This document shows, in pieces, positions 44 to 54,713 of a DNA stretch of 64,000 bases. The translations under genes and the position numbers were made by a program. Origin of the DNA: Candidatus Aenigmatarchaeota archaeon (GTDB lineage: Archaea > Aenigmatarchaeota > Aenigmatarchaeia > GW2011-AR5). Position 1 is the stretch's first letter; each line of letters begins with the position of its first letter. The notes under the pieces were generated by a model. It ran no database searches, was not told the origin of the DNA, and saw only the letters and a program-made list of their open reading frames with translations. The stretch lies in the NCBI GenBank assembly GCA_016193585.1, contig JACPRW010000003.1, forward strand, positions 129,649-193,648, written 5' to 3'.

Positions 44-140
44 TTATAGCAGATTGTAATAATAATGGAACTTTTAGCTGCAATCTGCTATAGGGAAAGA
101 ACATCATAAAATGTTCCAAAATCAATGTTCTTTACTATTA
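44..140 (+). repeat. Miniature hairpin repeat, family R2, copy 1 (about 97 bp). Two internal stem-loops (gcagattg...caatctgc and aaagaacat...atgttcttt), TATAG start and CTATTA end.
   Basis: Near-identical copies at 38195-38291 and 48073-48169, all in + orientation. The internal inverted repeats are directly visible. Confidence 0.7.
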
Positions 141-197
141 TTGTTATTTGTTGTCACGCCATTCTAAAAATGTTCACTAATCAACAGAACATACTAT

Positions 198-292
198 TAT
201 AGAGAATTGCGTTGCTTATGACCTGTGAAAACGCAATTCGCTAGATGAGAAATGCGCAGCCTCTAAGGATATATGCTGCGCATTTCTCCATA
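198..292 (+). repeat. Miniature hairpin repeat, family R3, copy 1 (about 95 bp). Hairpins gaattgcgtt...aacgcaattc and gagaaatgcgcagc...gctgcgcatttctc. Imperfect terminal inverted repeat tatagagaattgc / gcatttctccata.
   Basis: Copies at 25347-25441 and 54620-54713. Stems are conserved while the loops vary. Confidence 0.7.
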
Positions 293-338
293 CATACCGA
301 AAAAGAAGCAGTAACCTCGTGGCTGAAGATTCTCAGCT

Positions 339-435
339 TATAGTGAACCAAGTAAACAATCAGGTATTATATCTTGGTTCACTTATAGCGGACAACAAAA
401 GTACTATGTCGGTATTCTTTTGTTGGTCCACTATA
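339..435 (+). repeat. Miniature hairpin repeat, family R1, copy 1 (97 bp). Hairpins gtgaaccaag...cttggttcac and ggacaacaaaag...cttttgttggtcc. Termini tatagtgaacca / tggtccactata.
   Basis: Seven copies in the window on both strands, about 90-95% identical. Confidence 0.75.
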
Positions 436-525
436 AAGCGTTACGCCTTATTCTAGCACCACGTGCGTCTCTGTCTTCCTCTTTCAATATGGTGAAAGTC
501 GATTCCAGCCTGTTCGCGCCGGAAA

Positions 526-1581
526 TCACGCATCCTCAATCCCATTCTCCGTTATCCTGAAGACGGCCTCGCCTTCGGGGAGGTGCGGCGAATCGATGAG
601 CCGCGCGATGCGCATGCCCTGCTTGCCTTTCCGCAGGTAAATGCGCACGCCGGTCGCGTGCGCGACAATATGCCCGCCTATTGCCGTCGTGGGGTCGCCG
701 AACATGATTGCCGGGTTCGCCATGACCTGGTTGGTGACGTACACGGCAAGATTGTGCATGTCCGCGAGCTTCTGGAGCGCGTGGATGTGCCGGTTGAGTT
801 TCTGCTGGCGCGGCGCCAGTTCTCCTCTCCCTGAATAGTCTGCGCGGAAGTGCGCAGTGAGCGAATCAACGACAATAAGCTTGATGCCCTTTTCCTTGAT
901 GACCTCCTTCGCCTTCTCGGCGAGCATGACCTGGTGGTCGCTGTTGAATGCCCGCCCCACGATGATGTTCTTGAGGACCTTGTTCGGGTCAAGGCCGTGG
1001 TTTTCCGCGATTTGCTTGATACGCTCGGGCTTAAAAGTTGCCTCCGTATCGATCCAGAGGCATGCGCCATTGAGCCCCCCCTTCTCCTTCGGCAGCTGGA
1101 CGTTGATTGCAAGCTGGTAGCCAAGCTGCGTTTTGCTGCTTGCAAACGAGCCGTACGCTTCGGTTATCTGCTGCGTTTCTATCCCGCCGCCGAACAGCGC
1201 GTTGAGCGAGGTGCAGCCGGTCGTTATTTTTCCTATTTCCTTCCGTTTTTCCATTATCTCGATGCCGGTCTTGTAGCCGATATCGAGCTTCGAGCGCGCG
1301 GCAATGATGATTTTCTCAGCAGTCGCCTCGCCGATCTCGCACGCGGCCATGAGCTCGCCGGTAGAGGCAGCCGCAATGGACATCAAATCCTCGTATCCCG
1401 ACTCGCGCAGCTTCTGCGCCCCTTTCGGCCCGACACCCGGCAGGTCCTCGATGGTGGGCTGGGGCGTTGCAGCATCCGTTACATCGTCATGTTCCTCTAT
1501 CGGAATTGGGCTGGCCGAATGCTTTTCGTCGCCGTCTTCCCCGAACTCCTCGTCATTCTTTGCTTTCGATTTCTTCGCCAT
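526..1581 (-). CDS. radA: DNA repair and recombination protein RadA (RecA/Rad51 family), with an N-terminal HhH domain.
   Basis: Full-length similarity to archaeal RadA from protein-family knowledge (HhH motif [13 protein letters not shown], Walker B LIVVDS, conserved C-terminal half). The Walker A region reads GSFASSKTQ rather than the canonical GEFGSGKTQ. Confidence 0.9.
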
Positions 1582-1592
1582 AATAACCCCGT

Positions 1593-2546
1593 TTATGCGG
1601 CAAGGAGCAGCCGTATCTCATCCTTGACAGAGACGTCCTTCACCGCGCTCGCCACGAATTCAAGGCGGTCGAACAGCTTGTTCCTGCGCACTTTTCCCTC
1701 AAACAGGAAATCCTTGCCGAGCGGAATCTTGTCAATGACCGGCCGCACGTTCCTCTTGCGGTCGAACAACTGCCGTGCCTCGTGCTTGTTTATGCCGATG
1801 ACCTTTTCAGCGTGTTCCCGGAACAGCACGGCACGAATGGAGTCGGTGCCGTCGTCGATGATGCCTGAGACGACGATGTCGAAATCAGGCTCGAGCTCTC
1901 CGTGCTCTGCGCATGCGCCTTCCCTCATCCGCGAGCCGCATTGCGGGCACAGCTCAAAAAAGAGCGTCGATTCGAATACCTGCACCAGGCATGCCCTGAC
2001 TTCCCGGTAATGTCCGTCTTTCAGGTCTGCCAGCGTGCTCCGTTCCACGCGGCGCTCGGCAATTTCAGTGATGCGCTCCGCGCTTTTCTGGATGATGCCG
2101 AACCTGCCAAGCCTGAGTTCTGCCGAGCCGGTATTGTCTTCCCGCGCGTGCCCTTTGACATGCACCACGTCGCCCTCGTCGAGCCCCTCTACCTTGTCGA
2201 TTTCGTCGTTCCAGAGCGACATCCGCACAGAGCCGGACCCGTCCGCAAGTATGATGTTCATAACTTTGCCGCTTGCCTTCTCGGTTTTGAATTCGCGTGC
2301 CGGAAAGATTCTCATTACCTTGCCCACGATGTCGACGTTTTTCATGCCGGGGATGATGTGCTGTATATGGAGTCGTTCCTGCTTGCGCAGGAGGCTCAGG
2401 CCAAGCTCCTTGGCAACAATGTACGCGGCTCCTTCCTCTGAGATAAGGCCCGCAAGCTCCCGCTGCTTCTCCGCTATTTTGTGCATGACCTCGTCTTCGT
2501 CAAGTCCAGAATCAGCAGCTATGATTTTAACAAGGTCGGCAAGCAT
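1593..2546 (-). CDS. Replication protein A-like single-stranded DNA-binding protein (OB folds plus a C4 zinc ribbon).
   Basis: OB-fold-like repeats and a CPQCG...C..H zinc ribbon typical of archaeal RPA. It lies adjacent to radA. Confidence 0.75.
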
Positions 2547-2603
2547 GCAATAACTACAGCGGAAAAATGTTTAAAGGTCAATCAATTTTGCTCTTTAAGA
2601 GCA

Positions 2604-2864
2604 CTATCTGCCGAAGGCTTCATGGTAAAGCGATTCGATGTCCCTTTGTACGTCCTCGATGCCGCTCGCCCTTTTTTCAGCATCGCTGGCCATAGCATAG
2701 GCACGCTGTATCATATCATACGCGGCTTGTAGGGAACGATAATTTCCGAAAAGGCTGTAGTGTGTTGCCTCTGCCCGAGCGCGTGCTACCATAACCCCCA
2801 CCGATGTTTCGGAAGGCAGTTTCCTGAATGTAGCCAACATTTCGTCAGGTATTTTCGCCATCAT
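2604..2864 (-). CDS. Hypothetical protein (86 aa).
   Basis: ORF only. Co-directional and tightly spaced with its neighbours. Confidence 0.35.
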   Translation of the reverse strand: MMAKIPDEMLATFRKLPSETSVGVMVARARAEATHYSLFGNYRSLQAAYDMIQRAYAMASDAEKRASGIEDVQRDIESLYHEAFGR

Positions 2865-2877
2865 AATGCACCTCCAG

Positions 2878-3312
2878 TCACGGTTGCTGCGCCAGTTCCG
2901 CGAGCCTGCGCTGCAGCTGCTGGAAATCCTCAGGAAGTTCTATGCCGCCATCATGCGCATACGTTTCTGCGAGGGTCAGGGCATCATGTGCCTCCCCTAT
3001 TTTTCTTCTCACCGACACTTCATATGACTCCCTTCTCAAGAGAGGAATGTCGGCAGGAGCAGGGATGCCTGCTTTGGCTGCATAACTTTCGGCATGGTGA
3101 AGCCCTTGAAGCACGTGCCTGCCGTACCCCTTTTGCAGGTCATCGCGGGCGCACTGCATGTGCCATTCTGCAGCAGCTTCATAGACAGCTCGGCACAAGT
3201 CAGGAGGGAGGCGCTTTTGATATCGGTTTGCGAGCCGTACAGCGGCTTGAATACGCTTGCTGCGCAAGCAATCCTGCACGTCACGTGCGATCAATTCCCG
3301 TGGATGGGGCAT
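2878..3312 (-). CDS. Hypothetical alpha-helical protein (144 aa).
   Basis: ORF with a non-repetitive protein-like sequence. No recognisable family. Confidence 0.4.
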   Translation of the reverse strand: MPHPRELIARDVQDCLRSKRIQAAVRLANRYQKRLPPDLCRAVYEAAAEWHMQCARDDLQKGYGRHVLQGLHHAESYAAKAGIPAPADIPLLRRESYEVSVRRKIGEAHDALTLAETYAHDGGIELPEDFQQLQRRLAELAQQP

Positions 3313-3345
3313 AAAACTCGTGCGTTAGTACTGCAGAAACAGATA

Positions 3346-3442
3346 TATAGTGGACCAACAAAAGAATACCGACATAGTACTTTTGTTGTCCGCTATAAGT
3401 GAACCAAGATATAATACCTGATTGTTTACTTGGTTCACTATA
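3346..3442 (-). repeat. R1 family repeat, copy 2 (reverse orientation).
   Basis: Reverse complement of copy 1. Confidence 0.75.
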
Positions 3443-3635
3443 AACGCATGCCGCAGGTGGGCGTGGTTGCTTCTAATAAACGCATGGCGGAACGTGCTCT
3501 TCCTGCAGTTACCTGTCCGGTGGCGTATGGATTTCTGTGCACGTTTCAGTGAACGTAACGGGGAATCTATTTTTGTAATGCCAAAATAAACCCGTAACAA
3601 CGCTAACGAGAAGGAATGTAACAACCCTGCACGTT

Positions 3636-3848
3636 TCAGTGCTTCTCCAGAATCTTCTTCGCAAGCCTGATGTCCCGTTTCATGACCGTGCGCCGCTCTG
3701 AGTGCTCGGAAAGCTTCCGCGCCTCCTCGGCGACGAGCCTGGTGCGCTCTTCAAGAACCCGTGCGAGCTCAAGTGCCGCCTTGTCGCTGACGCGCTTGGC
3801 GCCGGCGCGCTTGAACAGGCGGCGCACGGGTTCCAGCGTGAGTTCCAT
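3636..3848 (-). CDS. Archaeal histone (HMf-like histone fold, 70 aa).
   Basis: The sequence MELTLEPVRRLFKRAGAKRVSDKAALELARVLEE...IRLAKKIL matches the archaeal histone fold. The listed ORF starts with GTG 14 codons upstream; the ATG at 3848 gives the typical length. Confidence 0.8.
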   Translation of the reverse strand: MELTLEPVRRLFKRAGAKRVSDKAALELARVLEERTRLVAEEARKLSEHSERRTVMKRDIRLAKKILEKH

Positions 3849-4082
3849 ACATGCATTTGTACCTTCCATGATTAAAAGTGATGCCATCACAAGAGAAAGA
3901 ATACGTCAGAAACTATCGTTCATGAAAAAATTATAACGAACTATAGTTAAGAAAGTCGATGAAAGAATATATAAATATACAACAAAACGTATGATACATC
4001 TACGTTTATAGAAGATATCTGTTACAATACATATGTAAAAACATATTTAAACCCAGGCAGCTATAACTAACGTAAGAAAACT

Positions 4083-4373
4083 ATGACTATCAACGATCTC
4101 GAAGAACTTTTTCTGCGGAAAAAGCCCGTGAGGTTATTGCTCAATATAAAGCTCGGCGGCACGAAGTACGTTTCGATACTCGCGAAGGAAACGGACTGCA
4201 CGTATTCCCATACGGTGAAGCTGCTTGAGCTGTTCCAGAACCTCGGCTTGGTTACGTTCGAGAAGAGCGGCCGCATCAAGTTCGTCAAGCTGTCGGCCGA
4301 AGGCACCGAGCTTGCCGGCGATTTCGAGAATGTGCTGCGCAAATTCGCGAAGCTGAAGCCGAAAAAGAAGTGA
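4083..4373 (+). CDS. Small winged-helix (ArsR/TrmB-like) DNA-binding protein.
   Basis: Size and helix-turn-helix-like segment. Weak family assignment. Confidence 0.5.
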   Translation: MTINDLEELFLRKKPVRLLLNIKLGGTKYVSILAKETDCTYSHTVKLLELFQNLGLVTFEKSGRIKFVKLSAEGTELAGDFENVLRKFAKLKPKKK

Positions 4374-4377
4374 TGTA

Positions 4378-5359: not shown

Positions 5360-5474
5360 CAGAACTCAGACAAAGTTCTGTCCTTGCTGCAAGGAGATGA
5401 TATAGATAATTGCGCAGCTTATGTCGTATTAACGCGCAATTTTCTATAGGTGAATTGCAAATAATATCAGGACA

Positions 5475-5571
5475 TATAGTGAACCAAGTAAATAATTAGG
5501 TATTGTATCTTGGTTCACTTATAGCAGACAACAAAAGTATTATGTCGGTATTCTTTTGTTGGTCCACTATA
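5475..5571 (+). repeat. R1 family repeat, copy 3 (slightly diverged).
   Basis: Same structure as copy 1 with a few substitutions. Confidence 0.75.
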
Positions 5572-5709
5572 ACCAGTGCAATTCACCATATCAGGGACTG
5601 TATGAAAACTAATGCCATCGACTATAGAATCGCATGACGAGGAAATAAATTAACCTACAAACCGGTCGTGAGGGTTATTTATTTACTAGAAGAAATAGTT
5701 TATTAAAAT

Positions 5710-9879: not shown

Positions 9880-9970
9880 AGCCCCGTAGTGTAGCGGCCA
9901 AAGGCATAAAGCCGGCTATGCATGAGAGCCTCTGGAGCTCTAGACGGCGGTTCGAATCCGCCCGGGGCTA
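9880..9970 (+). tRNA. tRNA gene, 91 nt, probably tRNA-Gln(CUG), with a roughly 16-17-nt insertion (intron) at a non-canonical position between the D-arm and the anticodon stem.
   Basis: Acceptor stem agccccg / cggggct, T-arm ggcgg-ttcgaat-ccgcc, anticodon arm agagc-cucugga-gcucu (anticodon CUG). The extra sequence is gcataaagccggctatgcatg. Confidence 0.55.
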
Positions 9971-10002
9971 CCTTTAAATATATAATTAAACATAAACATA
10001 AC

Positions 10003-10257
10003 ATGGGATTCAAGACTATTACGATAAAGGAAAGTGTCTACAGGGAGTTGTCCGGTTTAAAGGGAAAAAGTGAAAGTTTTAGCGAGTTCTTTGAAAAATT
10101 GGTCAAAGAAAAAAAGGGGAAGCCTGACCTAAGGAAATTTTACGGTTCATGGAAGATGGGCACAGGCGAATGGAGAAGAATAGGAAAAATAGTTAAAAAA
10201 AGAAGAACCGCTGCCGGCAAACGCTACAAGGAAAAATTACAGGGGCTGTTCGAATGA
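10003..10257 (+). CDS. vapB: VapB-like antitoxin (84 aa).
   Basis: Small basic protein directly upstream of a PIN toxin, overlapping it by 4 nt (ATGA). Lies in an AT-rich segment. Confidence 0.55.
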   Translation: MGFKTITIKESVYRELSGLKGKSESFSEFFEKLVKEKKGKPDLRKFYGSWKMGTGEWRRIGKIVKKRRTAAGKRYKEKLQGLFE

Positions 10258-10643
10258 AAATTCTTGATACGGATATCCTCGTAGGCGTGCTCAGAAAGAA
10301 CGATGAAGCAATAAAAAAATACGAACAAATACGGGACGTAGAAATAACTACAACCATTTTCAATGCACAAGAACTCCTGTTCGGCGCGCTTATTTCTGAC
10401 AACGCCTATGAAAATTTCAGGGCTGCAAAAGGCTTGGTCAACGAACTTGGGGCTTTAAAGTACGACGAAAAAAGCATGGTAGAATCGGTCAGGATTCAGG
10501 TATATCTTGAAAAGACCGGCAGGCACATAGGACTTGTGGATGAGATGACCGCAGGCATATGCCTTGCTCACAATGCACCCATAGTAACCAGAAATACCGT
10601 GCATTTCTCAAGAGTTTCCGGACTGAAGGTTGAGAAATGGTAG
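10254..10643 (+). CDS. vapC: PIN-domain ribonuclease toxin VapC.
   Basis: MKILDTDILV... N-terminus and conserved acidic residues of the PIN domain. Gene pair architecture. Confidence 0.8.
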   Translation: MKILDTDILVGVLRKNDEAIKKYEQIRDVEITTTIFNAQELLFGALISDNAYENFRAAKGLVNELGALKYDEKSMVESVRIQVYLEKTGRHIGLVDEMTAGICLAHNAPIVTRNTVHFSRVSGLKVEKW

Positions 10644-10691
10644 GATGGGTAAAGCTCTGGGCATGGTTCGGATACGGTTGGGCTATTAAAT

Positions 10692-11534
10692 ATGTACACA
10701 TCGGTGGAAAAAATGAGGAAAATAACCGTGGCCATGCTTATAGCAATCTTGATTGTTATTTCTGGTTGTATTAAGGAACCCAGTGGGCAAGAAATTGTCC
10801 AGAAAATCATTTTGGGAAAAAAGAATATTGTATCTTACGGATTTGACACTAACACAGCGTTCACCGTAAAGGTGAATACAACAGAAGAGAGCAGTGAGTT
10901 TCATAGAGAAGAAACCGGAATATTTACGCTTCACGCAGAAGGTTTCCTCGACGTAATGAATAACGAATCAGTCGCTAATGCTACTTACAACATGTACAAT
11001 GACGCCGGAAAACCCCCCATGAGATTTGTGAGATATGTGCGCAACGATACCGTATACGCAACATACGGGCATGGATGGTTCAGGGACAGTTATTTTGCAC
11101 CACGGATGAGTTATTTAGATACCATCTATGAAACCTTGGAAAGAACCAATGAAACGGAGATTTCATTGAACGAGACAGAAGGTCACTACATAATTACAAT
11201 GAAACTTGATACCGCTGCCAATGAGGATGTATACGCATATAACGTATTTTTTAACATTCTTTTCCTTCCTACGGCAGGTGTGTACCCATGGTATATAGAA
11301 AATCTAAGTGCAGCATTTGTGCAGGTATCGGTAGACAGACAAACATTCAGAATAGATGAATACCGAGTATACGCGTATGGTGTTTACTACAATCAAACAA
11401 TTGGTCGAGAAAGTGTAGAATATGTTGCAACTGGAAGAATTTATGATTATAACAAATCCATACAAATAGATGTGCCGCCAGAGGCGGAAGATGCCGAATG
11501 GTTTCCTGCAGGCGTAATAAGTGTAATTCTTTAG
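10692..11534 (+). CDS. Secreted/lipoprotein-like hypothetical protein with many N-glycosylation sequons.
   Basis: Signal peptide with a lipobox-like ISGC. Numerous N-x-S/T sites. Low-GC gene. Confidence 0.55.
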   Translation: MYTSVEKMRKITVAMLIAILIVISGCIKEPSGQEIVQKIILGKKNIVSYGFDTNTAFTVKVNTTEESSEFHREETGIFTLHAEGFLDVMNNESVANATYNMYNDAGKPPMRFVRYVRNDTVYATYGHGWFRDSYFAPRMSYLDTIYETLERTNETEISLNETEGHYIITMKLDTAANEDVYAYNVFFNILFLPTAGVYPWYIENLSAAFVQVSVDRQTFRIDEYRVYAYGVYYNQTIGRESVEYVATGRIYDYNKSIQIDVPPEAEDAEWFPAGVISVIL

Positions 11535-11573
11535 GTGTTATGTGTAAAGCTGTAGGTATCGGTTCGAATCAGG

Positions 11574-12362
11574 TTGGGGCTATCAGTACTACAAGGATTC
11601 GGAATGAAATTAATTTCACTAAATATATGGGGCGGGAAACTCTTTGAACCGCTCATTAATTTTGTAGATGGTTGCGCTCACGAGACAAATATCTTTTGCT
11701 TCCAGGAGATGCACCACGTAACAGCGCACGGAACTGTCAATAAAGGTACTACGTCTTTATTCTCAGAAATTTCTGGACACCTTTCCGGATTTCGAGGAAT
11801 TTTCGCCCCCACGAATAAGGTTGAATCTTCAGAAAAAGAAAGAGTTGAGACATGGAATGGGTTAGCTCTTTTTATTCGGAAACCAATTAAGGTAATTTCT
11901 CATGGCGACGTGGTCATTCATAAGCCAGCAGCGACTATTGAAGATCCAGAACACAAATCAATTCCAAGAAACTTGCAGTATGTTATATTCAAGAATGGTG
12001 GAAGGAAGTACCTGCTCTGCCACTTCCACGGTATTTGGTACCCTAAAACAAAAGTTGATACGCCAGAACGGATTGAACAATCTAAAAAAATTAGGAACTT
12101 TTTAGATTCATATCGGTGCAGAAAAATTCTGTGCGGGGATTTCAATCTTTTACCTAAGACAGGGAGCATAGAAATCCTGGAGACGGGGATGAGGAATATG
12201 GTCACTGATTTCAAAATAAAAACAACACGGAACATCCACTACACGAGAGAAGAAAAGCACGCCGATTACGTGTTAGTAACGCCGGATATAAAAGTCAAGG
12301 CGTTTAGCGTCTTGGACGACGTAGTTTCTGACCACCTCCCGTTATTTTTGGAGTTTGAATAA
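11574..12362 (+). CDS. Endonuclease/exonuclease/phosphatase (EEP) family protein.
   Basis: LNIWGG N-terminal motif and C-terminal SDHLP motif typical of the EEP family. Low-GC gene. Confidence 0.75.
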   Translation: MGLSVLQGFGMKLISLNIWGGKLFEPLINFVDGCAHETNIFCFQEMHHVTAHGTVNKGTTSLFSEISGHLSGFRGIFAPTNKVESSEKERVETWNGLALFIRKPIKVISHGDVVIHKPAATIEDPEHKSIPRNLQYVIFKNGGRKYLLCHFHGIWYPKTKVDTPERIEQSKKIRNFLDSYRCRKILCGDFNLLPKTGSIEILETGMRNMVTDFKIKTTRNIHYTREEKHADYVLVTPDIKVKAFSVLDDVVSDHLPLFLEFE

Positions 12363-22444: not shown

Positions 22445-23227
22445 CTACATGTTGTCGGCTTCGCTGAGCGGTATGCTGGTGACGTGTACACCACTTCTCT
22501 TCAGCCTTCTGTAAAGGGTTTCCTGGGGGATCAGGAAATCAGAGGTTCTTTCTTCTTTTGTATGGGCCATTCCCACAATACAAATGTCAGGAGAAGTTGC
22601 CATCAATCCAACCTTCAAAAAATCCTCCCGTTCCTCTACAAATTCCCTCGCCGTATCAGTAAGCATGATTCCAGAAGGCACAAAGTCGGTCTGCCTGTAT
22701 TGAGCATCTGTCATTTCAATAGATCGCCGCACCATGTCTTCATATTTCAGTCCCCGCAACCCCCACCCGTTTACCATGTTCAGATATATCAAATCTACCG
22801 GCTTCTTCGGCTCAGCATAGCTGGACCCCATAGAAGCAAAAAGTGCTTCCACAAACGATGATGTTCTGGGATGTTCTACAAAGAAAAGATTTTCAGGGCC
22901 GTATCCAAGCTCGTAGCGCAATTCCATAGGGCATCTGGTTTCATAATCGAGTGTTTGTGAAAATGCTATCCCAAACCTTACCACATCTTCAGGCTCGTCC
23001 CCGGATAGCGCCCGTACATTCGCTTCAAGTGCAGACAACGAGCGGCGATTAAGGTAGTCATGGATAACGCCCTCATCAACAGGAAAGTCCCCCATGTGAA
23101 GCTCATAGGCCCACGTACCATTCCTGAACGTTGGGAGAAGGCATCTGTCCGGTGTGGGAGACTCTACTGCAACTGACCGGGGTTTCAGATACCTCAACAG
23201 TTTCGGCAGCCGCTCCGGGCATTTCAT
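22445..23227 (-). CDS. Hypothetical protein. The N-terminal 45 codons of the ORF-track call are just a translation of an R1 repeat.
   Basis: Coding-like sequence beginning at MKCPERLPKLL. No family recognised. Confidence 0.5.
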   Translation of the reverse strand: MKCPERLPKLLRYLKPRSVAVESPTPDRCLLPTFRNGTWAYELHMGDFPVDEGVIHDYLNRRSLSALEANVRALSGDEPEDVVRFGIAFSQTLDYETRCPMELRYELGYGPENLFFVEHPRTSSFVEALFASMGSSYAEPKKPVDLIYLNMVNGWGLRGLKYEDMVRRSIEMTDAQYRQTDFVPSGIMLTDTAREFVEEREDFLKVGLMATSPDICIVGMAHTKEERTSDFLIPQETLYRRLKRSGVHVTSIPLSEADNM

Positions 23228-23248
23228 GTCAAAATGTGATGTTCCGAT

Positions 23249-23397
23249 TATAGTGGACCAACAAAAGAATACCGACATATTACTTTTGTTGTCCGCTACA
23301 CGCGGAAAACAAGGTTTTCCGGTGCACCAAAAAGCTTTGCTTTTTGAGTGTAAGTGAACCAAGATATAATACCTGATTGTTTACTTGGTTCACTATA
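23249..23397 (-). repeat. R1 family repeat, copy 4, long variant with two extra hairpin modules (caaaaagc...gctttttg and cggaaaac...gttttccg) inserted between the two standard hairpins.
   Basis: Alignment to the short copies shows about 55 extra nt of modular insertion. Confidence 0.75.
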
Positions 23398-25149: not shown

Positions 25150-25320
25150 CTAGAGGCCTCCCATGAGTATGACGGTCAGGAAAATGGCGAATCCGACAAC
25201 ACCGACGACCGCCATGCCGATGCCTGTTATCTTCAGGCTCTGCATGAATTCAATTTTGTCGGGCTTGCTCGATACCAGCAGCACGCGCCTGATTCGCTCA
25301 AGTAACAGGTTGAGATTCAT
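25150..25320 (-). CDS. secE: Protein translocase subunit SecE / Sec61-gamma (56 aa). Not in the ORF track because it is under 60 aa.
   Basis: Short ORF with a single C-terminal TM helix, in the conserved slot between ftsZ and spt5. Confidence 0.7.
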   Translation of the reverse strand: MNLNLLLERIRRVLLVSSKPDKIEFMQSLKITGIGMAVVGVVGFAIFLTVILMGGL

Positions 25321-25346: not shown

Positions 25347-25441
25347 TATAGAGAATTGCGTTGCTTATGACCTGTGAAAACGCAATTCGCTAGATGAGAA
25401 ATGCGCAGCCTCTAAGGATATATGCTGCGCATTTCTCCATA
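25347..25441 (+). repeat. R3 family repeat, copy 2.
   Basis: About 98% identical to copy 1. Confidence 0.7.
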
Positions 25442-26527: not shown

Positions 26528-26610
26528 GAAACCACGTTCTGTTATTACGTTTCGAAGTTATTTAAAACTTCGACCGCATAAATAGAGATAATAGTAACTG
26601 TAGTAGTAAT

Positions 26611-26707
26611 AGTAGTAAAGGATACATAGTAAAATAGTAGTAAAGGATACATAGTAAAATAGTAGTAAAGGATACATAGTAATAGTAGTAAAGGATACAG
26701 ATAGTAA
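26611..26707. repeat. Tandem repeat, about 4 copies of a roughly 25-bp AT-rich unit (agtagtaaaggatacatagtaaaat), in the divergent ftsZ / small-gene promoter region.
   Basis: Direct inspection. No unique spacers, so it is not a CRISPR array. Confidence 0.7.
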
Positions 26708-26759
26708 CGGTAGTAGTAAAAATAGTAATAGCAAAGCACGCAAGCAGGGGTGCGAGAGA

Positions 26760-26882
26760 ATGAAGCTGAAATGCGCGAAGTGCAGCCACGTATGGACGAC
26801 GCGTAAGGACAAGATGCCGGTGCTCTGCCCGTACTGCAAGAGCTCGACGTACTATCACAAGCCGCTCGTGCTGAGGGAATAG
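26760..26882 (+). CDS. Small zinc-ribbon protein (40 aa; CAKC...CPYC).
   Basis: ATG ORF with two CxxC pairs, immediately downstream of the tandem repeat. Too short for the ORF track. Confidence 0.4.
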   Translation: MKLKCAKCSHVWTTRKDKMPVLCPYCKSSTYYHKPLVLRE

Positions 26883-26910
26883 CGGTGCAGAAGCAGTTGT
26901 TGAAGAGCTT

Positions 26911-27051
26911 TATAGTGGACCAACAAAAGAATACCGACATATTACTTTTGTTGTCCGCTACACGCGGAAAACAAAGTTTTCCGGTGCACCAAAAAGCTTT
27001 GCTTTTTGCGTGTAAGTGAACCAAGATATAATACCTGATTATTTACTTGGT
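26911..27051 (-). repeat. R1 family repeat, copy 5, long variant. One terminus is degenerate.
   Basis: Same 4-hairpin architecture as copy 4. Confidence 0.7.
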
Positions 27052-27054
27052 CGT

Positions 27055-27339
27055 ATGACGGCAACAACGACGGGAATCCAGTTTCGTGGCAAAGATCCCT
27101 ACGGACTCGCGCGTTCCATTGGCGATGCGCTTACGCATGAAGGAGCAGGAAATTTTATAGGAGTATATCAGTCGTTCGGAGATAAAGGCGAAAGGGTCTA
27201 TCTTGTTTCCGCTGGTGTCACACCAGTATTTCATCTTAACCCGTTGCTCGCAGAGGTGACCGAGAGGGACGAGTACGTGGATGTAGTTCTGTATACAGCG
27301 CCTGAGATAGCTCAGCGTGTACGTGAAAAATTAGGGTAG
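27055..27339 (+). CDS. Hypothetical protein (94 aa). The ORF-track start lies inside the repeat.
   Basis: ORF from the first ATG outside the repeat. Confidence 0.35.
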   Translation: MTATTTGIQFRGKDPYGLARSIGDALTHEGAGNFIGVYQSFGDKGERVYLVSAGVTPVFHLNPLLAEVTERDEYVDVVLYTAPEIAQRVREKLG

Positions 27340-32732: not shown

Positions 32733-32851
32733 TGGGCGTGACGCGATTCGAACGCGCGACCCCCTGCTGACCTTTTTAGGAAAAAGGTCAATCAAAAACC
32801 TTCTCCCTTCATTAGAAGGCAGATGCTCTATCCAAGCTGAGCTACACGCCC
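32733..32851 (-). tRNA. tRNA-Arg (anticodon UCU) with a 44-nt intron at the canonical 37/38 position.
   Basis: Complete cloverleaf: acceptor gggcgtg / cacgccc, D-arm gctc/gagc, anticodon stem tctgc/gcagg with loop cuUCUaa, T-arm gcgcg-ttcgaat-cgcgt. The intron contains a cctttttcctaaaaagg helix. Confidence 0.8.
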
Positions 32852-38194: not shown

Positions 38195-38291
38195 TTATAG
38201 CAGATTGTAATAATAATGGAACTTTTAGCTGCAATCTGCTATATGGAAAGAACATTGTAAAATGTTCCAAAATCAATGTTCTTTACTATTA
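38195..38291 (+). repeat. R2 family repeat, copy 2.
   Basis: About 95% identical to copy 1. Differences fall mostly in loops. Confidence 0.7.
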
Positions 38292-41141: not shown

Positions 41142-41385
41142 TATAGTGAACCAAGTAAATAATCAGGTATTATAGCAATACAAGGGAATAAACACGATAT
41201 TACTTCCTTGTTTGCTATATGTGAAACAAGAAGTGATATGCCGATATTATTTTCTTGTTTCACTATATATCTTGGTTCACTTACACGCAAAAAGCAAAGC
41301 TTTTTGGTGCACCGGAAAACGTTGTTTTCCGCGTGTAGCGGACAACAAAAGTAATATGTCGGTATTCTTTTGTTGGTCCACTATA
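41142..41385 (+). repeat. R1 family repeat, copy 6 (long variant) carrying a nested insertion of a different hairpin element (family R4, about 41175-41267) inside its first hairpin loop.
   Basis: R1 termini and hairpins are intact around an about 92-bp insert. The insert contains caaggga...tccttg and gtgaaacaag...cttgtttcac hairpins. Confidence 0.7.
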
Positions 41386-41425: not shown

Positions 41426-42061
41426 TCAAGGCTTATGACGGGTGATTTGATAAAAGGTCACGTCTCCTTCGTTATCCACAATCGCCCACAGCATCCGCGC
41501 CCGTATGTTGTGCGCCAGCCGCACCGAGCGCGACAGTTCCTGGAAGGACATCGTGAAATCCTCGGGAACGCAGAAGACGATCCATTTGGTGTGCTCTTTG
41601 GCGCTTTTCGGGCCCTTTTTCAGCTGGACGCCCCGTTCATAGACGCGGAAATCGACGCCGAACTTGAAGCCTGTCCGCACGAGCAAGCCGCGCTCGCGCA
41701 GGTCCTCATACACGCGGTAGCGGTGCGAAAAGCGCTTGTCAAGGGAAGCTGCGTGTTCGTACAATTCTTGGAACTTCATGGGCTCATTATTCCTGAGAAC
41801 ACGAATACGCCCGCGCTTCAGGAGCAGGCATGCCTCTACGAGGGCGAGCTCAAGGCGGTCGCCAAGCTGCTTGCCATAGAAACCGGGTTCATAGACCTGC
41901 TGCCATTTGTCCCAGGCAAATACCTTGTCTTCCTCGAGCTTCGTGTCGATGATTTCCTTCGGCGCTTCCCACTCGACGTACTCCGCTTTCTGCTGGTCCT
42001 CTTCCCAAGCCTCTTCCTCTGTTTTCTGAGCTTCATGGGGTCTTTTTTTCTTTTTGCTCAT
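41426..42061 (-). CDS. endA: tRNA-splicing endonuclease subunit (EndA family).
   Basis: C-terminal catalytic domain pattern (GFKFGVDFRVYERG ... HTKWIVFCV ... RLAHNIRARMLWAIVD). Confidence 0.8.
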   Translation of the reverse strand: MSKKKKRPHEAQKTEEEAWEEDQQKAEYVEWEAPKEIIDTKLEEDKVFAWDKWQQVYEPGFYGKQLGDRLELALVEACLLLKRGRIRVLRNNEPMKFQELYEHAASLDKRFSHRYRVYEDLRERGLLVRTGFKFGVDFRVYERGVQLKKGPKSAKEHTKWIVFCVPEDFTMSFQELSRSVRLAHNIRARMLWAIVDNEGDVTFYQITRHKP

Positions 42062-42886: not shown

Positions 42887-42990
42887 GCGCCTCCGGCAGG
42901 ACTCGAACCTGCGACCACCTGATTAACAGTTTCACCCAACCTTTTATCGCTGAAAGGTTGACAGGTGCTCTACCTGCTGAGCTACAGAGG
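42887..42990 (-). tRNA. tRNA, probably Asn(GUU), 104 nt, with an about 31-nt intron located at the anticodon stem/loop junction (non-canonical position). It lies 2 nt from tRNA-Phe.
   Basis: Acceptor gcctctg/cggaggc, D-arm gctc/gagc, T-arm gcagg-ttcgagt-cctgc. The only 7-nt loop with U33 obtainable by removing one contiguous segment is cuGUUaa. The intron contains an aaccttt...aaaggtt helix. Confidence 0.6.
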
Positions 42991-43018
42991 CTTCGTTTAG
43001 TTTTATTGAGGAAAGCAT

Positions 43019-43115
43019 ATATAGTGAACCAAGTAAATAATCAGGTATTATATCTTGGTTCACTTATAGCGGACAACAAAAGTAATATGTCGGTATTCTT
43101 TTGTTGATCCACTAT
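43019..43115 (+). repeat. R1 family repeat, copy 7.
   Basis: Immediately 5' of the tRNA pair. Confidence 0.75.
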
Positions 43116-43338
43116 ATAAAGAATTCAAAGGAAACGGATTTTCAAGAAATCGGAGACGAATATTCCCCGAAACACTGGAAAGCGAAAGGCTTTCTGAACG
43201 AGTCTACGCGGTCTACGGCAAAAAATCGCCCTTCTTGAGCTTCTGCGGCAGGTAGGTTTCGCCCATGAACTTCAGGCCGCGGTATACAATCCTAAAACTG
43301 AGAAATGGTTAAGAGATTTCTGTGTAGAATGTCTTAAC

Positions 43339-48072: not shown

Positions 48073-48169
48073 TAAAAGCGTGTTATAGCAGATTGTAATA
48101 ATAATGGAACTTTTAGCTGCAATCTGCTATAGGGAAAGAACATCATAAAATGTTCCAAAATCAATGTTC
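48073..48169 (+). repeat. R2 family repeat, copy 3.
   Basis: Near-identical to copy 1. Confidence 0.7.
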
Positions 48170-48189
48170 TTTACTATTATAGTCATTAC

Positions 48190-48234
48190 GTGAAACAAGA
48201 TGTGCCATCGGTATCATTTTCTTGTTTCACTATA
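48190..48234 (+). repeat. Partial R4-type hairpin element (gtgaaacaag...cttgtttcac + tata), abutting R2 copy 3.
   Basis: Same hairpin module as the nested insert in R1 copy 6. Confidence 0.5.
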
Positions 48235-48235
48235 C

Positions 48236-49321
48236 TCAGTAGAATATTCTCCACACCATGACGCGCGTCGCGAATGTTTCATACCCGTCGAGAACCCCGA
48301 TATGGTGATAGGATACGGAGCGCTGAACTTTTGGAACAGTCTTAAAGGGCGGGTCGAGAAGGAACTGCTCCCCAGAAGCCCACATGATAGACGCTGTGGT
48401 AAGATTGCTGAGAACTTCAGCAGCATTTTCTTCATCCTCATCAGGCGTATAGTGCGCCATCCAGGCGGTCCTGCCCTTGCCTGAAACGGTGATGTTGAGC
48501 TTGAGGTACGAGAACCTGCCGTTGGACGACTCGATGGCGGTCGTTTCGTCGACTGTTATGCAGTTGGCACCGTCGCCGTTGGATTGCGTATTGAATTTCT
48601 TGAAGACAGTATTTGCGTCGAGCCCGGAAATGTTCGCGAAATAATTTCTCACCTTGAACGCGTAAGACGATGGATTTTCCTGCGACTCGGGGAATCGCCC
48701 GTTGCCGTTATTGCCGCCGCAGCCTTGCGGCCTCCAGCTCAGCCCGAACAACGGCCCTATGAAACCGTCTTTCACTTCATTCTCTTTCAGGTCAGCGAGC
48801 ATGAACAGCGTCTTGCCGTTCGCAAGGAAGTTGGACAGGTAGCTCCTGTTGGCCGCGTCAAACTGCCTGTAGCCGAAAAATACGACCACGTCAATGGGCG
48901 CGTAGGCGAGGTTGTCAAGCGAGTCATTGGTCACAACAAGCATAATATTTCTTTTTTTGTAGCCGAATGCTGTGCTGTACAGCATATCCTTTAGTTTCTG
49001 CGTTTCTTCTGTTGTGCAATTGCACCCGATGCGTATCACCGGATTCGGGATACCGCGAACTTCCACTGAAAAATCCACCGTTTCAGGGAGCATCCTTTTG
49101 AGCCTCGTGTGCAGCAGTGTTGCATTATTCAGAAGAATCGCCTGCTGTACTGTCCCGTTTATGTACAGCGATGCCATCGCATCGTTGACCTGAGTCTGGG
49201 TCAATACATCGCCCCAGAACGAGTACCTTTCGATGATAAAAAAATAGGAAAGCGATGTCAGCAGTATAAGCGACGCTATAATTGCCTCAAGAATCCTCAC
49301 GAATCCCTTCCGTTGTTTCAT
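48236..49321 (-). CDS. Pilin-like protein with a class III (type IV prepilin-like) signal peptide (KG|FVRILEAIIASLIL).
   Basis: N-terminal K-G cleavage motif followed by a hydrophobic helix with Glu at +6. Sits in a pilus gene cluster. Confidence 0.6.
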   Translation of the reverse strand: MKQRKGFVRILEAIIASLILLTSLSYFFIIERYSFWGDVLTQTQVNDAMASLYINGTVQQAILLNNATLLHTRLKRMLPETVDFSVEVRGIPNPVIRIGCNCTTEETQKLKDMLYSTAFGYKKRNIMLVVTNDSLDNLAYAPIDVVVFFGYRQFDAANRSYLSNFLANGKTLFMLADLKENEVKDGFIGPLFGLSWRPQGCGGNNGNGRFPESQENPSSYAFKVRNYFANISGLDANTVFKKFNTQSNGDGANCITVDETTAIESSNGRFSYLKLNITVSGKGRTAWMAHYTPDEDEENAAEVLSNLTTASIMWASGEQFLLDPPFKTVPKVQRSVSYHHIGVLDGYETFATRVMVWRIFY

Positions 49322-50771: not shown

Positions 50772-50848
50772 GTTACTTTATTATGCTCCTGCCTATTTTA
50801 GCTTTGTCAGGCAAAGCGCCCCAATCGGCCCAAATCAGCGGGCAGTAG

Positions 50849-51709: not shown

Positions 51710-53517
51710 ATGGCTTCGATCCTTCCAAGCAGGTAATCAGGGGAGGTGTAGAAGAGATTTATCACAGATGCAATCTTCCGGTAATCGGTGATGTTGTTGA
51801 GAACCGTCCATTCAAGCACCTTTGCGCGCTTTTTGAGCTCCTCCTGGACGGCATAGTCGTCAAGCCCGCTCGCCTCGGCTATCTTCCTCAAAAGCACGCT
51901 TTTGTTCGTGTTCTTGTACACGTCCATCTTCGGGTCCCAAGAAAAGACCTCGTCGACGATAGGCGCGTTGAGCTTGTCGTTAAAGCCTATGACCTCGACC
52001 GAGCTGTTCACGCGTCGCAGGTATTTTTTCCCCTGTTTTATCCTCTTCAGGAATATAATCACGTCGAGGTTCTGCATCAGGTTTGGCGGCAGGCTTATGG
52101 GAGGCGACGTGAGCCTGTCGACGAGTTTCGGGAAATTTTCGGCGTGGATGGTGGAGAGGCCGGGATGGCCGACGGCCATCTGCTGGAAAAGCACATACGC
52201 TTCCTTACCACGAACCTCGCCGACGATGATGTAGTCAGGCCGCTGCCTGAGCGATTCCCTCAGAAGCTCGAACATGTCAACCTTGCCCTCCTCTGCTATC
52301 GGGGTCCGTGCCACCTCCGGCACCCAGTGCGAGTGCGGGAGCCTTAGTTCTGCGGTATCCTCTATCGAAATGATTTTCATCTGCGGCTTGATGAAGAGGG
52401 ACAGCACATTGAGTAATGACGTCTTCCCCGTTGCTGTGCCGCCGGAGATGAGGAACGAGGAGCCGTGCTCAATGAGCATCCAGTAATACGCCATCATGCG
52501 GATGTCGCAGGTCCCGAACTTGACGATGTCAAGGGGAGTCAGCGGCTTGTCGGTGAACATCCTGATGGTGTAATTGGACCCGCGCCGCGCTATGTCACTC
52601 CCAAGCGTTGCCTGGACACGCGAGCCGTCGGGGAGAGTGCCGTCAAGGAGCGGCTTTGAGATGGATATTGTCCTGCCGCACCGCTCGGCAATCTTATTCA
52701 CGAAAGAATCGAGCTCGTCGCCGTTGGTGAAGACGACGTTCGTCCGCAGCGACCCGAGGCGCGGATCACGGTGGTACACGTAAATGTTTATGTTCACGCC
52801 GTCACACGAAATATCCTCGATGCGATTGTCGTTCAGTATAGGCTCTATCTTTTCGAGGCCGACGAAATCCCTGAATATGTAGTACCGAAGGATTTCCCGT
52901 TTCTCGTCGTCGAAACGTGAGTGGAAATAATCAAGTGCCTTCTCAAAAACGGCGGCGATGTAGTTTATTGCGTCCCTCTTTCGTACATGGGAAAAATTTA
53001 TGTCGACTTTTTCCTGGATGTACTCCTTTATCTCATGGACGAGCATCTTCATGCGCGCGTCAAGCGGCGGCTCGACAACATCGTATACAACCTGGTTCGT
53101 GGACTGGTCGTAGTGGATATACGCGTACGCAAAAATTCGCTCCCCCTCCTTCGGATTTTGCGGTATAAGCGGATAGGTAATGCTTATGTTCCTCAGCTCA
53201 AGCAGCTCCTTCGTCACCGCCTCAAGGTCCTTTGTTTTGAGCCTCTCCACTTCGGTTTCTATCGGCGGCACCTTGATGCCAGTTGCGATTTTAATTTGAG
53301 TCTCCTCATGGCCACTGCTCTCCTTCTGTGCGCCGCCGGAAAATCCTGTTCCTTGGGCAATGACATTGCCGCCGATGGGCATCGAGGCCGCTATATAGCC
53401 TGTTGTTATGCCGTCTGCCTTCGGCTTCGGATTGAATTTGAACCGTATCTTCTTTGTTCCGGTGTTCGTAGCCAGGCGTACGATGAGGTATTTTTCCTTT
53501 GCCTGTAGCTCTGCCAT
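51706..53517 (-). CDS. FlaI/TadA/VirB11-family secretion ATPase, with an about 130-aa N-terminal extension.
   Basis: Walker A GGTATGKTS, Asp and His boxes typical of type II/IV secretion ATPases. Confidence 0.9.
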   Translation of the reverse strand: MAELQAKEKYLIVRLATNTGTKKIRFKFNPKPKADGITTGYIAASMPIGGNVIAQGTGFSGGAQKESSGHEETQIKIATGIKVPPIETEVERLKTKDLEAVTKELLELRNISITYPLIPQNPKEGERIFAYAYIHYDQSTNQVVYDVVEPPLDARMKMLVHEIKEYIQEKVDINFSHVRKRDAINYIAAVFEKALDYFHSRFDDEKREILRYYIFRDFVGLEKIEPILNDNRIEDISCDGVNINIYVYHRDPRLGSLRTNVVFTNGDELDSFVNKIAERCGRTISISKPLLDGTLPDGSRVQATLGSDIARRGSNYTIRMFTDKPLTPLDIVKFGTCDIRMMAYYWMLIEHGSSFLISGGTATGKTSLLNVLSLFIKPQMKIISIEDTAELRLPHSHWVPEVARTPIAEEGKVDMFELLRESLRQRPDYIIVGEVRGKEAYVLFQQMAVGHPGLSTIHAENFPKLVDRLTSPPISLPPNLMQNLDVIIFLKRIKQGKKYLRRVNSSVEVIGFNDKLNAPIVDEVFSWDPKMDVYKNTNKSVLLRKIAEASGLDDYAVQEELKKRAKVLEWTVLNNITDYRKIASVINLFYTSPDYLLGRIEAI

Positions 53518-53519
53518 TG

Positions 53520-53966
53520 CTATCCCCTGAGCAGGTCTATTGTGCCGCCAGCAGACCTGACCTGAACGTATCGTGTTGCGCTGTGCACGCTGCCTCTTAA
53601 ATTATAACTTTCCTCCAGTTTAAAAATTTCCCTTGTGAAACTCACCGATGCCGTGCTTATGTTGAGTAAGCAGCGTTCCCCACGTTCGCACACTCTCCCG
53701 TTGGCATCGTGGATGCGCATGAGGTACGGCTGTTCCGAAACCGTCTCCGGCACCGAAAAGCTCACGGTCATGTTGGTTGCATTCGTCTTTCCTACGATGA
53801 CGATTGCAGAAGCGATGGCATCGGAAACCAATGAAAGCTGGCTTCTCGTCGCCTTTTCCTTAAGCGTATTCTCCAGCAGAGCAAAGTTGAGAATGACAAA
53901 ACTGGTTATGGCAAGGCCGATGGCGAATATGAGGATCTCATTTACAATAATATACTGGCCCTTCAT
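53520..53966 (-). CDS. Pilin-like protein with a class III signal peptide (KG|QYIIVNEILIFAIGL).
   Basis: As above. Confidence 0.6.
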   Translation of the reverse strand: MKGQYIIVNEILIFAIGLAITSFVILNFALLENTLKEKATRSQLSLVSDAIASAIVIVGKTNATNMTVSFSVPETVSEQPYLMRIHDANGRVCERGERCLLNISTASVSFTREIFKLEESYNLRGSVHSATRYVQVRSAGGTIDLLRG

Positions 53967-54003
53967 ATGTACATTATAATGCTGCCACTATATATACAGT
54001 GGC

Positions 54004-54594
54004 TTATTCTATCCCAATCCTGACAAAAGTCCGCGTGACATCGCGCCCGCTTGCGGTTGTCGTTGCAGACCCGGCGCTCTCGATGATGATGCTGCGCTGT
54101 TCGGAGCCCGTTGCATTTCCGCCGATAAGCTCGATGCGGTATGACAGGATGCCAGGCGTGTCGAGCGTTATGAACGTGAGCCGGTAGTCATGCTCCATGA
54201 CGGTATCCACCTGCTTCGTTTCGACGCAGAGGCTCGAAGGCTCGTCAGTTCCCCATATCCCCCGCGTCATGGTGCAGCTGTTCCTGCTGAGCGAGATAAG
54301 GCCAGGCACGTAGATGCTTCCCTTGGTATTTATAGCCAGCCTCACGCTGTTGCTGCGGTTGTCGAATATCACGGTACCCGGAACAGATATCTGCAGCCTG
54401 TCCCTACCCCCATGATTGGCGATATATTTTATCTTGTCGTTGAGTTCATGGGCAAACCGCTCTGAATTTTCAAGCGTGGCGATGTCACGGTTTTTTTCGA
54501 TGAGTGGCAGTCCCCAGAAGTATACCGAGCCCACGACGCCAAGCATGACGCCGGTAATAAGCACGGCAGAAAATGCCTGAATGCCTTTTCGCAT
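54004..54594 (-). CDS. Pilin-like protein with a class III signal peptide (RKG|IQAFSAVLITGVML). Start placed at M34.
   Basis: As above. Confidence 0.55.
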   Translation of the reverse strand: MRKGIQAFSAVLITGVMLGVVGSVYFWGLPLIEKNRDIATLENSERFAHELNDKIKYIANHGGRDRLQISVPGTVIFDNRSNSVRLAINTKGSIYVPGLISLSRNSCTMTRGIWGTDEPSSLCVETKQVDTVMEHDYRLTFITLDTPGILSYRIELIGGNATGSEQRSIIIESAGSATTTASGRDVTRTFVRIGIE

Positions 54595-54619
54595 AATATC
54601 ATATCTGTTTTGCGATATA

Positions 54620-54713
54620 TATAGTGAATTGCGTTGCTTATGACCTATGAAAACGCAATTCGCTGGATGAGAAATGCGCAGCTCCAAGGGCATATGCTGC
54701 GCATTTCTCCATA
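54620..54713 (+). repeat. R3 family repeat, copy 3 (stems conserved, loops diverged).
   Basis: Compensatory pattern relative to copies 1 and 2. Confidence 0.7.

Follow-up and report, generated by a model that had tools for sequence, protein, structure and literature searches.

Correia elements (CREE or NEMIS) of Neisseria are non-coding, intergenic, multi-copy sequences of ~100-150 bp that fold into hairpins and have TATAG termini. They duplicate a TA target, and we know of no cognate transposase for them. [quoted passage not shown] Repetitive extragenic palindromes (REPs) with their mosaics (bacterial interspersed mosaic elements, BIMEs) and inverted pairs (REPINs) are dense, short and intergenic, and are linked to REP-associated tyrosine transposases (RAYTs). 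Palindrome-associated transposable elements (PATEs), derived from IS200/IS605 and found in haloarchaea and cyanobacteria, are several hundred bp long, with subterminal hairpins, no terminal inverted repeats and a fixed 4-5-nt target that is not duplicated. Here we describe hairpin repeats that share features with each of these systems in a stretch of 64,000 nucleotides from a Candidatus Aenigmatarchaeota archaeon (contig JACPRW010000003.1, positions 129,649 to 193,648), referred to below as the window. A 2024 census notes high MITE densities in some DPANN genomes and nothing more specific (PMC11602168); our search of the literature on Aenigmarchaeota or DPANN found no description of these repeats.

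The gene content of the window is archaeal, with topoisomerase VI, thermosome, RadA, archaeal ribosomal proteins, a tRNA-splicing endonuclease and intron-containing tRNAs, and a 7-gene segment is syntenic with the Aenigmatarchaeota metagenome-assembled genome (MAG) JBAZQV01 (75% amino-acid identity for the thermosome). Between the genes lie 31 hairpin units of ~47 nt each (16 pairs), at 11 intergenic loci, which occupy 1,653 bp or 2.6% of the sequence. They are non-coding throughout and show the generic traits of MITEs, being short and multi-copy with inverted termini. We consider it probable that they are non-autonomous, TA-duplicating mobile DNA of MITE or Correia-like kind, built of hairpin modules, specific to Aenigmatarchaeota and recognized through foot and loop.

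Each unit is composed of a TATAG foot, a variable stem of 11-15 bp, a conserved loop of 15-22 nt (AAATAATCnGGATAttA), the complementary arm and a CTATA foot, and each ~95-bp repeat is an inverted pair of two adjoining units. Intergenic inverted hairpin pairs with a conserved foot are also what characterizes REPs and REPINs. A first-pass annotation of the window had sorted the repeats into four families, R1 to R4. Their arm sequences are wholly different, yet all four share the foot and loop motifs and align to one consensus, and we therefore treat them as a single superfamily defined by structure. Oriented by the loop, the units read TATAG-YnnAMCMAnn-AAATAATCnGGATA-TTAy-...-CTATA; 67 of 81 unique units start with TATAG, and the loops end in ...GATATTAC or ...GGTATTAT. 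In each of the six pair types examined, one unit has its higher model score on one strand and its partner on the other, showing that they are mutually inverted. A covariance model built from 29 diverse units (from the window and ten loci elsewhere) and run without filters over the 64 kb matched every window unit and gave no other match at E<0.5.

A second kind of module (class II) of ~50 bp lies between or inside the large hairpins. It consists of two mini-hairpins of ~24 nt with CA(A)G...C(T)TG ends; the boundaries TA-CA(A)G...C(T)TG-TA are conserved and the stems covary. The 52-bp inserts that distinguish three long R1 copies correspond to this module, which had gone unrecognized as a separate entity.

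Single-strand predictions of the two-hairpin folds were better than those of dinucleotide shuffles (z from -3.9 to -10.7), in line with the folding first proposed, and an alignment of 125 distinct rows to the model revealed strong stem covariation. Standard pairs make up 93.9% of the stem cells in these rows, compared to 74.2% after shuffling and 22-44% in slid registers, and 204 cells are changed on both sides, compared to 36.6 in shuffles. In the hand-made seed alignment of 29 units, compensatory changes were found at 10 of 11 stem pairs, and the G-C pair next to the foot is nearly invariant (26/29 units). Some unit types hold a helix irregularity at a fixed place amid covarying pairs, for example the bulged T in GCTC-T-ACAAGG...CCTTGTGAGC. 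These patterns, taken from sequence comparison, indicate that the hairpin itself is under selection.

Evidence for mobility was obtained from two contigs, L059 and L097. Their flanks are 99.8% and 98.2% identical on the two sides, and between the flanks, in a large-hairpin loop, the contigs differ in length by exactly 52 bp. The empty site in L059 reads GA-TA-TCGG, and the filled site in L097 reads GA-TA-(50 bp, CAAGAAGG...CTGCTTG)-TA-TCGG. This difference is an insertion, or a precise excision, of a mini module with TA duplication. For the large hairpins, the loop of an intact R1 A unit reads GGTAT-TA-TA-TCTTGG and contains two TAs, and the copy interrupted by R4 contains five. Such a count fits a TAG...CTA element plus one duplicated TA and excludes a 4-bp TATA duplication. 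Together, the empty/filled pair for the mini module and the TA count of the nested R4 support the description of these non-coding, multi-copy repeats as MITE-like and TA-targeting. There are two nested insertions in the window (R4 in the loop of an R1 A unit, and the R1 pair at 5475-5571 in the loop of hairpin F), and mini modules lie within large-hairpin loops at at least four further loci. The flanks beyond the duplicated TA are variable, and elements occupy different intergenic gaps in the window and in the syntenic JBAZQV01 MAG.

Indels in two other contig pairs were ruled out as insertions of the family, since they are unrelated to the hairpins. Between the 99%-identical contigs L052 (364-4648) and L067, a 4.3-kb segment is present or absent between 9-bp direct repeats (CAACTAATC); it may be some other mobile or deleted segment. 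The 99.5%-identical contigs L079 (96-936) and L114 (9110-9314) differ by a replaced segment, and L079 additionally has a ~63-bp insert flanked by CACATA direct repeats.

No empty site was obtained for the window's own strain, as no short-read contig spans any site at the six repeat-facing gene edges. At five of these edges, the short-read contigs, which are from the same organism, break off within 60 bp of the neighboring repeat, and at the sixth they stop ~210 bp short. These ends, seen in independent short-read assemblies, argue against the idea that the repeats are a local segmental duplication or an assembly artefact limited to the region. So do the unrelated flanks of all copies and the occurrence of the design in at least seven other MAGs and ~35 metagenome contigs; copies confined to this region had been named as a possible sign of local duplication, and the copies are not so confined. 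The observation in favor of local duplication is that two 100%-identical inverted R1 copies lie 2.9 kb apart, and overall we regard this explanation as refuted. The two copies themselves (338-435 and 3346-3443) are 100% complementary over 98 nt and bracket a 2.9-kb segment containing radA and RPA, unlike the remaining R1 pairs, which show 2-7% difference. This suggests recent copying, gene conversion or an invertible segment.

To map the distribution of the repeats, we scanned one genome per species for the exact pattern of the commonest stem (GTGAACCAAG...CTTGGTTCAC), which gave 42 loci (L002-L042). Nineteen of these, from seven Aenigmatarchaeota MAGs including GW2011_AR5 (GC 36-49%), carry the features of the family, namely TATA feet, the loop, a neighboring second hairpin and the mini-hairpin module. 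Bacterial hits had neither TATA feet nor the loop motif, and many were GC-rich hairpins followed by T-runs, resembling terminators. A further ~35 family loci came from applying the same scan to metagenome contigs. The design is thus present in at least eight Aenigmatarchaeota assemblies, the window included, and recurs in every Aenigmatarchaeota assembly that the stem pattern recovered; these are not species-specific MITEs. Three pattern scans of viral contigs gave no convincing member (the loci returned were L135, which has no TATAG feet, and L045, which has neither TATA flanks nor the loop motif). The family is essentially absent from viral contigs, and viral or plasmid carriers were rejected on these scans.

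The loop consensus is kept across genomes of 36-52% GC. A-type units are almost identical in all of these genomes, and an R2a-type unit of the window is identical at 45 of 48 positions to one in an unrelated contig. Orthologous proteins of the compared host genomes are only 40-75% identical, so the repeats are far more conserved than the proteins.

The stem scan also caught two kinds of hairpin outside the family. In other metagenome contigs (L049 1313-1357, L068 766-807 and L096 893-931), the GTGAACCAAG hairpin forms the tip of a much longer palindrome (GACCCTGCAGGGTCATCATCAGGCCTTTAT...), and these palindromes look like a different, larger family of hairpin elements. A conserved hairpin, GTGAACCAAGctactNNNNNNNNgtagCTTGGTTCAC, was found at L011, L017, L022, L028, L033, L041 and ~12 metagenome loci. 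All of these are a single orthologous locus in Planktophila and related freshwater Actinobacteria; the hairpin resembles an ordinary conserved terminator and has no relation to the archaeal family.

We propose the following mechanism for the reading as mobile DNA. Class I is the inverted pair of ~47-nt hairpins, in which a TAG...CTA foot and a conserved loop go with a stem that varies freely but stays self-complementary. Class II, the two mini-hairpins of ~50 bp in all that end in CA(A)G...C(T)TG, inserts at a TA that then flanks it on both sides, as the empty/filled pair shows. Class I would likewise insert with TA duplication, as we infer from the single nested case. The AT-rich loops of other elements and TA-rich intergenic DNA would be the preferred targets, and composites and nests would accumulate as a result. 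A trans-acting enzyme would recognize the folded or extruded hairpin (foot plus loop) and not the sequence of a terminal repeat, because only feet and loops are conserved while the stems covary. This mode of recognition would explain how one enzyme serves all variants; that a single transposase moves all of them, as was suggested at first, is plausible because feet and loops are common to all variants. One candidate is a DDE transposase of the IS630/Tc1 type, which would agree with both the duplicated TA and the mini module's CA...TG ends. Another is a single-strand HUH enzyme of the REP-RAYT or IS200/IS605 kind, which would fit the hairpin logic and the conserved bulges. The broader proposal, that a lineage-wide, structure-defined and TA-duplicating system of hairpin modules, the 50-bp module included, is recognized by foot and loop, is one that we put forward tentatively. 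Unusual features of the family are the proposed structure-defined recognition, the recurrence in all recovered Aenigmatarchaeota assemblies, the 50-bp mobile module and the TATA-regenerating ends.

Correia elements are the closest analogue in form. The window elements further resemble them in the arm of the B unit, TATAGTGGACCAACAAAAGAATACCGAC, which is identical at 16 of the first 18 positions to the published Correia repeat, tatagtggattaacaaaaaccggtacgg (PMC5039591). Membership in the Correia family nevertheless fails, as the 26-bp repeat (TATAGYGGATTAACAAAAA...) is matched in its first 18 nt only and architecture and host differ; the terminal similarity may be convergence. Correia elements occur in bacteria, solely in Neisseria, and carry one 26-bp terminal repeat together with a binding site for integration host factor (IHF). 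In the archaeal elements, each end is a complete hairpin with a conserved loop and free stem, elements nest in a modular way and there is a distinct 50-bp module besides. The ends of Correia elements give rise to promoters at their junctions (PMC10969869), and similar junction promoters are suspected for the archaeal elements.

The comparison to IS630/Tc1-mariner MITEs is most direct for the mini module, for which TA duplication is seen and whose CA...TG-type termini are flanked by TA. At ~50 bp it is smaller than any MITE we know of, Sulfolobus SM1 being ~80 bp. The archaeal elements differ from these MITEs in that conservation resides in foot and loop and not in a 15-30-bp terminal repeat, and in that no IS630-family partner with matching ends was found among the window ORFs (open reading frames) or at the sampled loci. 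The PATE alternative offered by the first-pass annotation shares with the window elements that they are non-autonomous, archaeal and hairpin-containing. It does not fit, because the elements have terminal inverted repeats and an apparent TA duplication; their flanks beyond the TA are also variable. Integron attC sites were rejected too, since the feet are TATAG/CTATA and not GTTRRRY cores, the flanking genes are housekeeping genes (radA, ftsZ, aminoacyl-tRNA synthetases) and no integrase was found in the window.

An archaeal counterpart of the REP/REPIN-RAYT system is an alternative explanation. Here a domesticated, single-copy HUH (Y1) transposase would cut single-stranded DNA at the TATAG foot and spread inverted pairs, and the apparent TA duplication would be the sum of a target TA and a TA owned by the element. 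Dense intergenic inverted hairpin pairs and mosaics as in REPINs and BIMEs, a conserved foot with covarying stems and helix irregularities conserved on one arm all agree with this explanation. The loop ends ...GATATTAC and ...GGTATTAT may also be similar to HUH Rep nick sites. Lineage-wide persistence would be expected if the repeats co-evolved with a vertically inherited enzyme, and is a trait in common with the bacterial REP-RAYT system (PMC2817692). The repeats differ from it in their archaeal host and in the size of the parts, REPs being 20-40 nt with small loops, compared to the conserved 15-22-nt loops here. One TA in the empty site and two in the filled site also form the classic signature of duplication. 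No Y1/HUH domain was found in window ORFs or in ORFs examined beside elements elsewhere, and no RAYT-like single-copy Y1/HUH gene flanked by repeats is present in the window or at the sampled loci, which are a small part of each genome. To our knowledge, RAYT genes have been described mainly in Proteobacteria. On balance we consider a REP-RAYT counterpart doubtful.

The search for a mobilizing enzyme of any type was likewise negative. Pfam analysis of 81 window ORFs gave no transposase, integrase or HUH domain, in agreement with the initial annotation. Ten ORFs between elements at four other loci comprised five ordinary cellular Pfam families and five without a match, and again no transposase, integrase or HUH domain. 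A Logan contig that extends past the right edge of the window added only unknown genes.

The conserved fold raises the question of a role in RNA, and the initial annotation had suggested transcribed structured RNAs. According to this explanation, the units would be structured RNAs or cis-acting RNA hairpins (terminators, processing or stabilizing sites, small RNAs) and their multi-copy state would be secondary. The strong stem covariation and conserved loop are consistent with it. Units also lie a few nt past co-directional stop codons (6 nt past that of ftsZ for an R3 pair; 1 nt past that of the gene ending at 48236), which means that they are almost certainly transcribed within operons. Other results point away from RNA. 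With respect to flanking transcription, A and B occur in either order (three vs two), giving no sign that one RNA strand is the functional form, and the units score on both strands. Stem mismatches are not enriched in G.U (GT+TG 21, CT 21, TT 16, AG 15, AC 12). Rfam searches of the window at gathering thresholds returned tRNAs only, and at E up to 1, in two element-rich stretches, they returned only RsaJ at 16.9 bits, compared to its gathering score of 100, which we do not count as a match. Insertion polymorphism and nesting are furthermore DNA-level behavior. The structured-RNA idea thus has no specific support despite the stem covariation; a primary role of this kind is unlikely, and the explanation as a whole seems to us quite improbable.

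Relatives of tRNA introns were ruled out, since the introns of the window tRNAs are unlike the hairpin units. Four of the five window tRNA genes (9880-9970, 32733-32851, 42888-42991 and 57996-58139) have tRNA-model matches of 91-144 nt. The displayed tRNA alignment contains a 46-nt insert in the anticodon arm, and the gene at 57996-58139 is long enough for a similar insert. ARAGORN detects two of the five genes, and a tRNA-splicing endonuclease gene is located at 41426-42061.

The positions of the elements relative to genes suggest a possible influence on transcription. At 5-6 of the 11 window loci, a terminal TATA lies 21-33 nt upstream of an outward-facing start codon or tRNA 5' end. The distances from the element end are 21 nt (ATG 23227), 26 nt (25320), 32 nt (41109), ~28 nt (tRNA, 42991) and 25 nt (54594), with 3312 as a possible further case. 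This interval is where an archaeal TATA box is expected, and the thermosome gene has its own TTTTTATAC ~30-38 nt before its ATG. Since elements end in TAG...CTA and duplicate TA, each junction reads TATA, and insertion into a TATA box would preserve one. The termini may therefore replace or supply an archaeal TATA box, and the hairpins may end or stabilize upstream transcripts. Co-option as promoter or terminator cassettes is possible.

A further alternative is that the repeats are host-selected DNA signals, such as portable TATA-box or promoter modules or binding sites for chromatin proteins or DNA uptake, with a host factor behind their conservation. The distances just described agree with it, as do the nearly identical A-type units across genomes of 36-52% GC and the 45/48 identity of the R2a-type unit, and in bacteria the supply of promoters by Correia elements is known (PMC10969869, PMC2649163). 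Several copies, however, are located between convergent genes or at a distance from any start, and the distance pattern was not reproduced in a crude scan elsewhere. Immediately inside the terminal TATA, the sequence seems to lack the richness in purines that would be expected of an archaeal B recognition element (BRE). Nesting and TA duplication are left unexplained by host signals unless mobility is added. We regard purely host-selected signals as a minor possibility, though one to be kept in mind. The window also encodes an archaeal histone and an Alba protein (3636-3890; region 58186-58467), which are conceivable DNA-binding partners of structured repeats, and nothing ties either of them to the elements.

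Several points weigh against the reading as TA-duplicating mobile modules that we prefer. The 81 window ORFs and ten ORFs elsewhere include no cognate transposase, and no full-length element with the same ends was seen, so that mobilization in trans is inferred. The clean empty/filled pair covers the mini module only, and TA duplication by the large pairs is documented by a single nested insertion for which there are intact copies to compare. In the window, long and short R1 forms alike have two TAs at the junction, where a simple insertion would have added one, and so do not form a simple insertion pair; an excision leaving both TAs in place would agree with this, which is conjecture. The A-type stem and loop are very highly conserved among genomes with 25-60% amino-acid differences, which is unusual for selfish MITEs and is a hint of a host function or of horizontal spread. 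Conserved irregularities of the helix, the bulged T among them, suit single-strand recognition better than a double-strand DDE enzyme. The peak in promoter distances was not reproduced either, as the crude ORF-based scan of other loci gave a broad distribution, and the promoter idea therefore draws on the window only.

The individual copies are arranged as follows; units were assigned by model match and fold, and no strand is given for R2, R3, R4 and E/F. An R2 pair at 44-140 (units 45-92 and 93-139) lies 3' of radA and is followed by an R3 pair at 198-292 (units 198-245 and 243-292). The short-form R1 pair at 339-435 on the plus strand (A 339-385, B 384-435) is the 100% complementary partner of the inverted, minus-strand pair at 3346-3442 (B 3346-3397, A 3396-3442). 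A hairpin pair E/F at 5401-5590, absent from the first-pass list, consists of E (5401-5448) and F (5445-5474 plus 5572-5590). The loop of F is split by the plus-strand R1 pair at 5475-5571, which has a TA on either side and is flanked by the F stem arms GGTGAATTGCA/TGCAATTCACC. A long-form R1 on the minus strand occupies 23249-23397 (B 23249-23298, mini module 23299-23350, A 23351-23397), and its left end is 21 nt upstream of an in-frame minus-strand ATG at 23227. The R3 pair at 25347-25441 lies 6 nt past the ftsZ stop and 26 nt before the ATG at 25320, which starts a 56-aa ORF just upstream of the Spt5/NusG gene. Another long-form R1 on the minus strand, with a truncated A unit, sits between convergent genes at 26911-27058 (B 26911-26960, mini module 26961-27012, A remnant 27013-27058).

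Further to the right, an R2 pair is found at 38195-38291 (units 38196-38243 and 38244-38290). The composite element at 41142-41385 on the plus strand contains an A unit split by R4 (41142-41174 plus 41268-41283), a mini module (41284-41335) and a B unit (41336-41385), and its left end is 32 nt upstream of the ATG (41109) of a CBS-domain gene. The R4 pair inside it, at 41171-41267 (units 41171-41219 and 41218-41267), is nested in the A loop at a TA step. A minus-strand tRNA gene has its 5' end at 42991, and the left TATA of the plus-strand R1 pair at 43019-43116 is ~28 nt upstream of this end. The third R2 pair spans 48083-48178 (units 48084-48131 and 48132-48178) and, together with an adjoining single R4b-like unit at 48186-48234, fills a 162-nt gap between two co-directional genes. 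The last R3 pair lies at 54620-54713; a membrane-protein ORF has a plausible ATG at 54594, and the left end of the pair is 25 nt upstream of it.

All 15 copies of the first-pass annotation were recovered at or close to the coordinates given there. Its third R2 copy (48073-48169) was the only mis-placed one, with a shift of ~10 nt, and the R4 copy that it had called partial (48190-48234) is a complete single hairpin unit (48186-48234). Identity among copies, put at 90-98%, was measured as 89-100%, except that the third R3 copy is only 71% identical without gaps because of a 1-nt indel. The differences in this copy fall in the loops, as had been noted, and in the linker, and there is also one change in a stem (A.G to T.G). 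The TATAG start and the CTATA or CCATA end hold with the exception of R2, which ends in CTATTA. The copies are intergenic as claimed, none lying within a gene that Pfam supports. Three long ORFs called mechanically (22445-23362, 26545-27024 and 54004-54693) run into element ends. Two of them have an in-frame ATG outside the element, at 23227 (21 nt away) and 54594 (25 nt away); the ORF at 26545-27024 has no Pfam match and was rejected by a codon-score gene call.

Two other regions of the window are of interest in their own right. Directly 3' of tRNA-Ser(GCT), a low-GC island at 9880-12362 (~41% vs ~52%) codes for a VapB/VapC (PIN) toxin-antitoxin, a 280-aa protein without Pfam match and an endonuclease/exonuclease/phosphatase-family protein. 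It resembles an element integrated at a tRNA gene, with no integrase seen there. At 59066-63349, an ORF of 1086 aa (60089-63349) without Pfam match adjoins two similar small ORFs that contain internal direct repeats spaced ~470-480 bp. Genes for a type IV pilus-like ATPase and T2SSF are located ~6-10 kb away, at 49.8-53.5 kb, and the region may be a surface or pilus gene cluster.

DPANN genomes are small and compact, yet these modules fill ~2.6% of the window, and the same plan is retained in genomes whose amino-acid positions differ by 25-60%. In practice, the repeats fragment short-read assemblies of these organisms, and they could be used as lineage markers and as natural promoter or terminator cassettes. 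If the 50-bp module is mobile as proposed, it would lower the known minimum size of mobile DNA, and the Correia-like termini are a possible lead on the question of the Correia transposase. Recognition of foot and loop with a free stem, if true, points to a hairpin-specific DNA enzyme of a new kind, which could be a new structure-specific transposase or a domesticated host enzyme. The repeats would then be the archaeal counterpart to REP-RAYT or to the orphan Correia system, and their TATA-regenerating modules would serve as portable promoter or terminator cassettes in reduced genomes.

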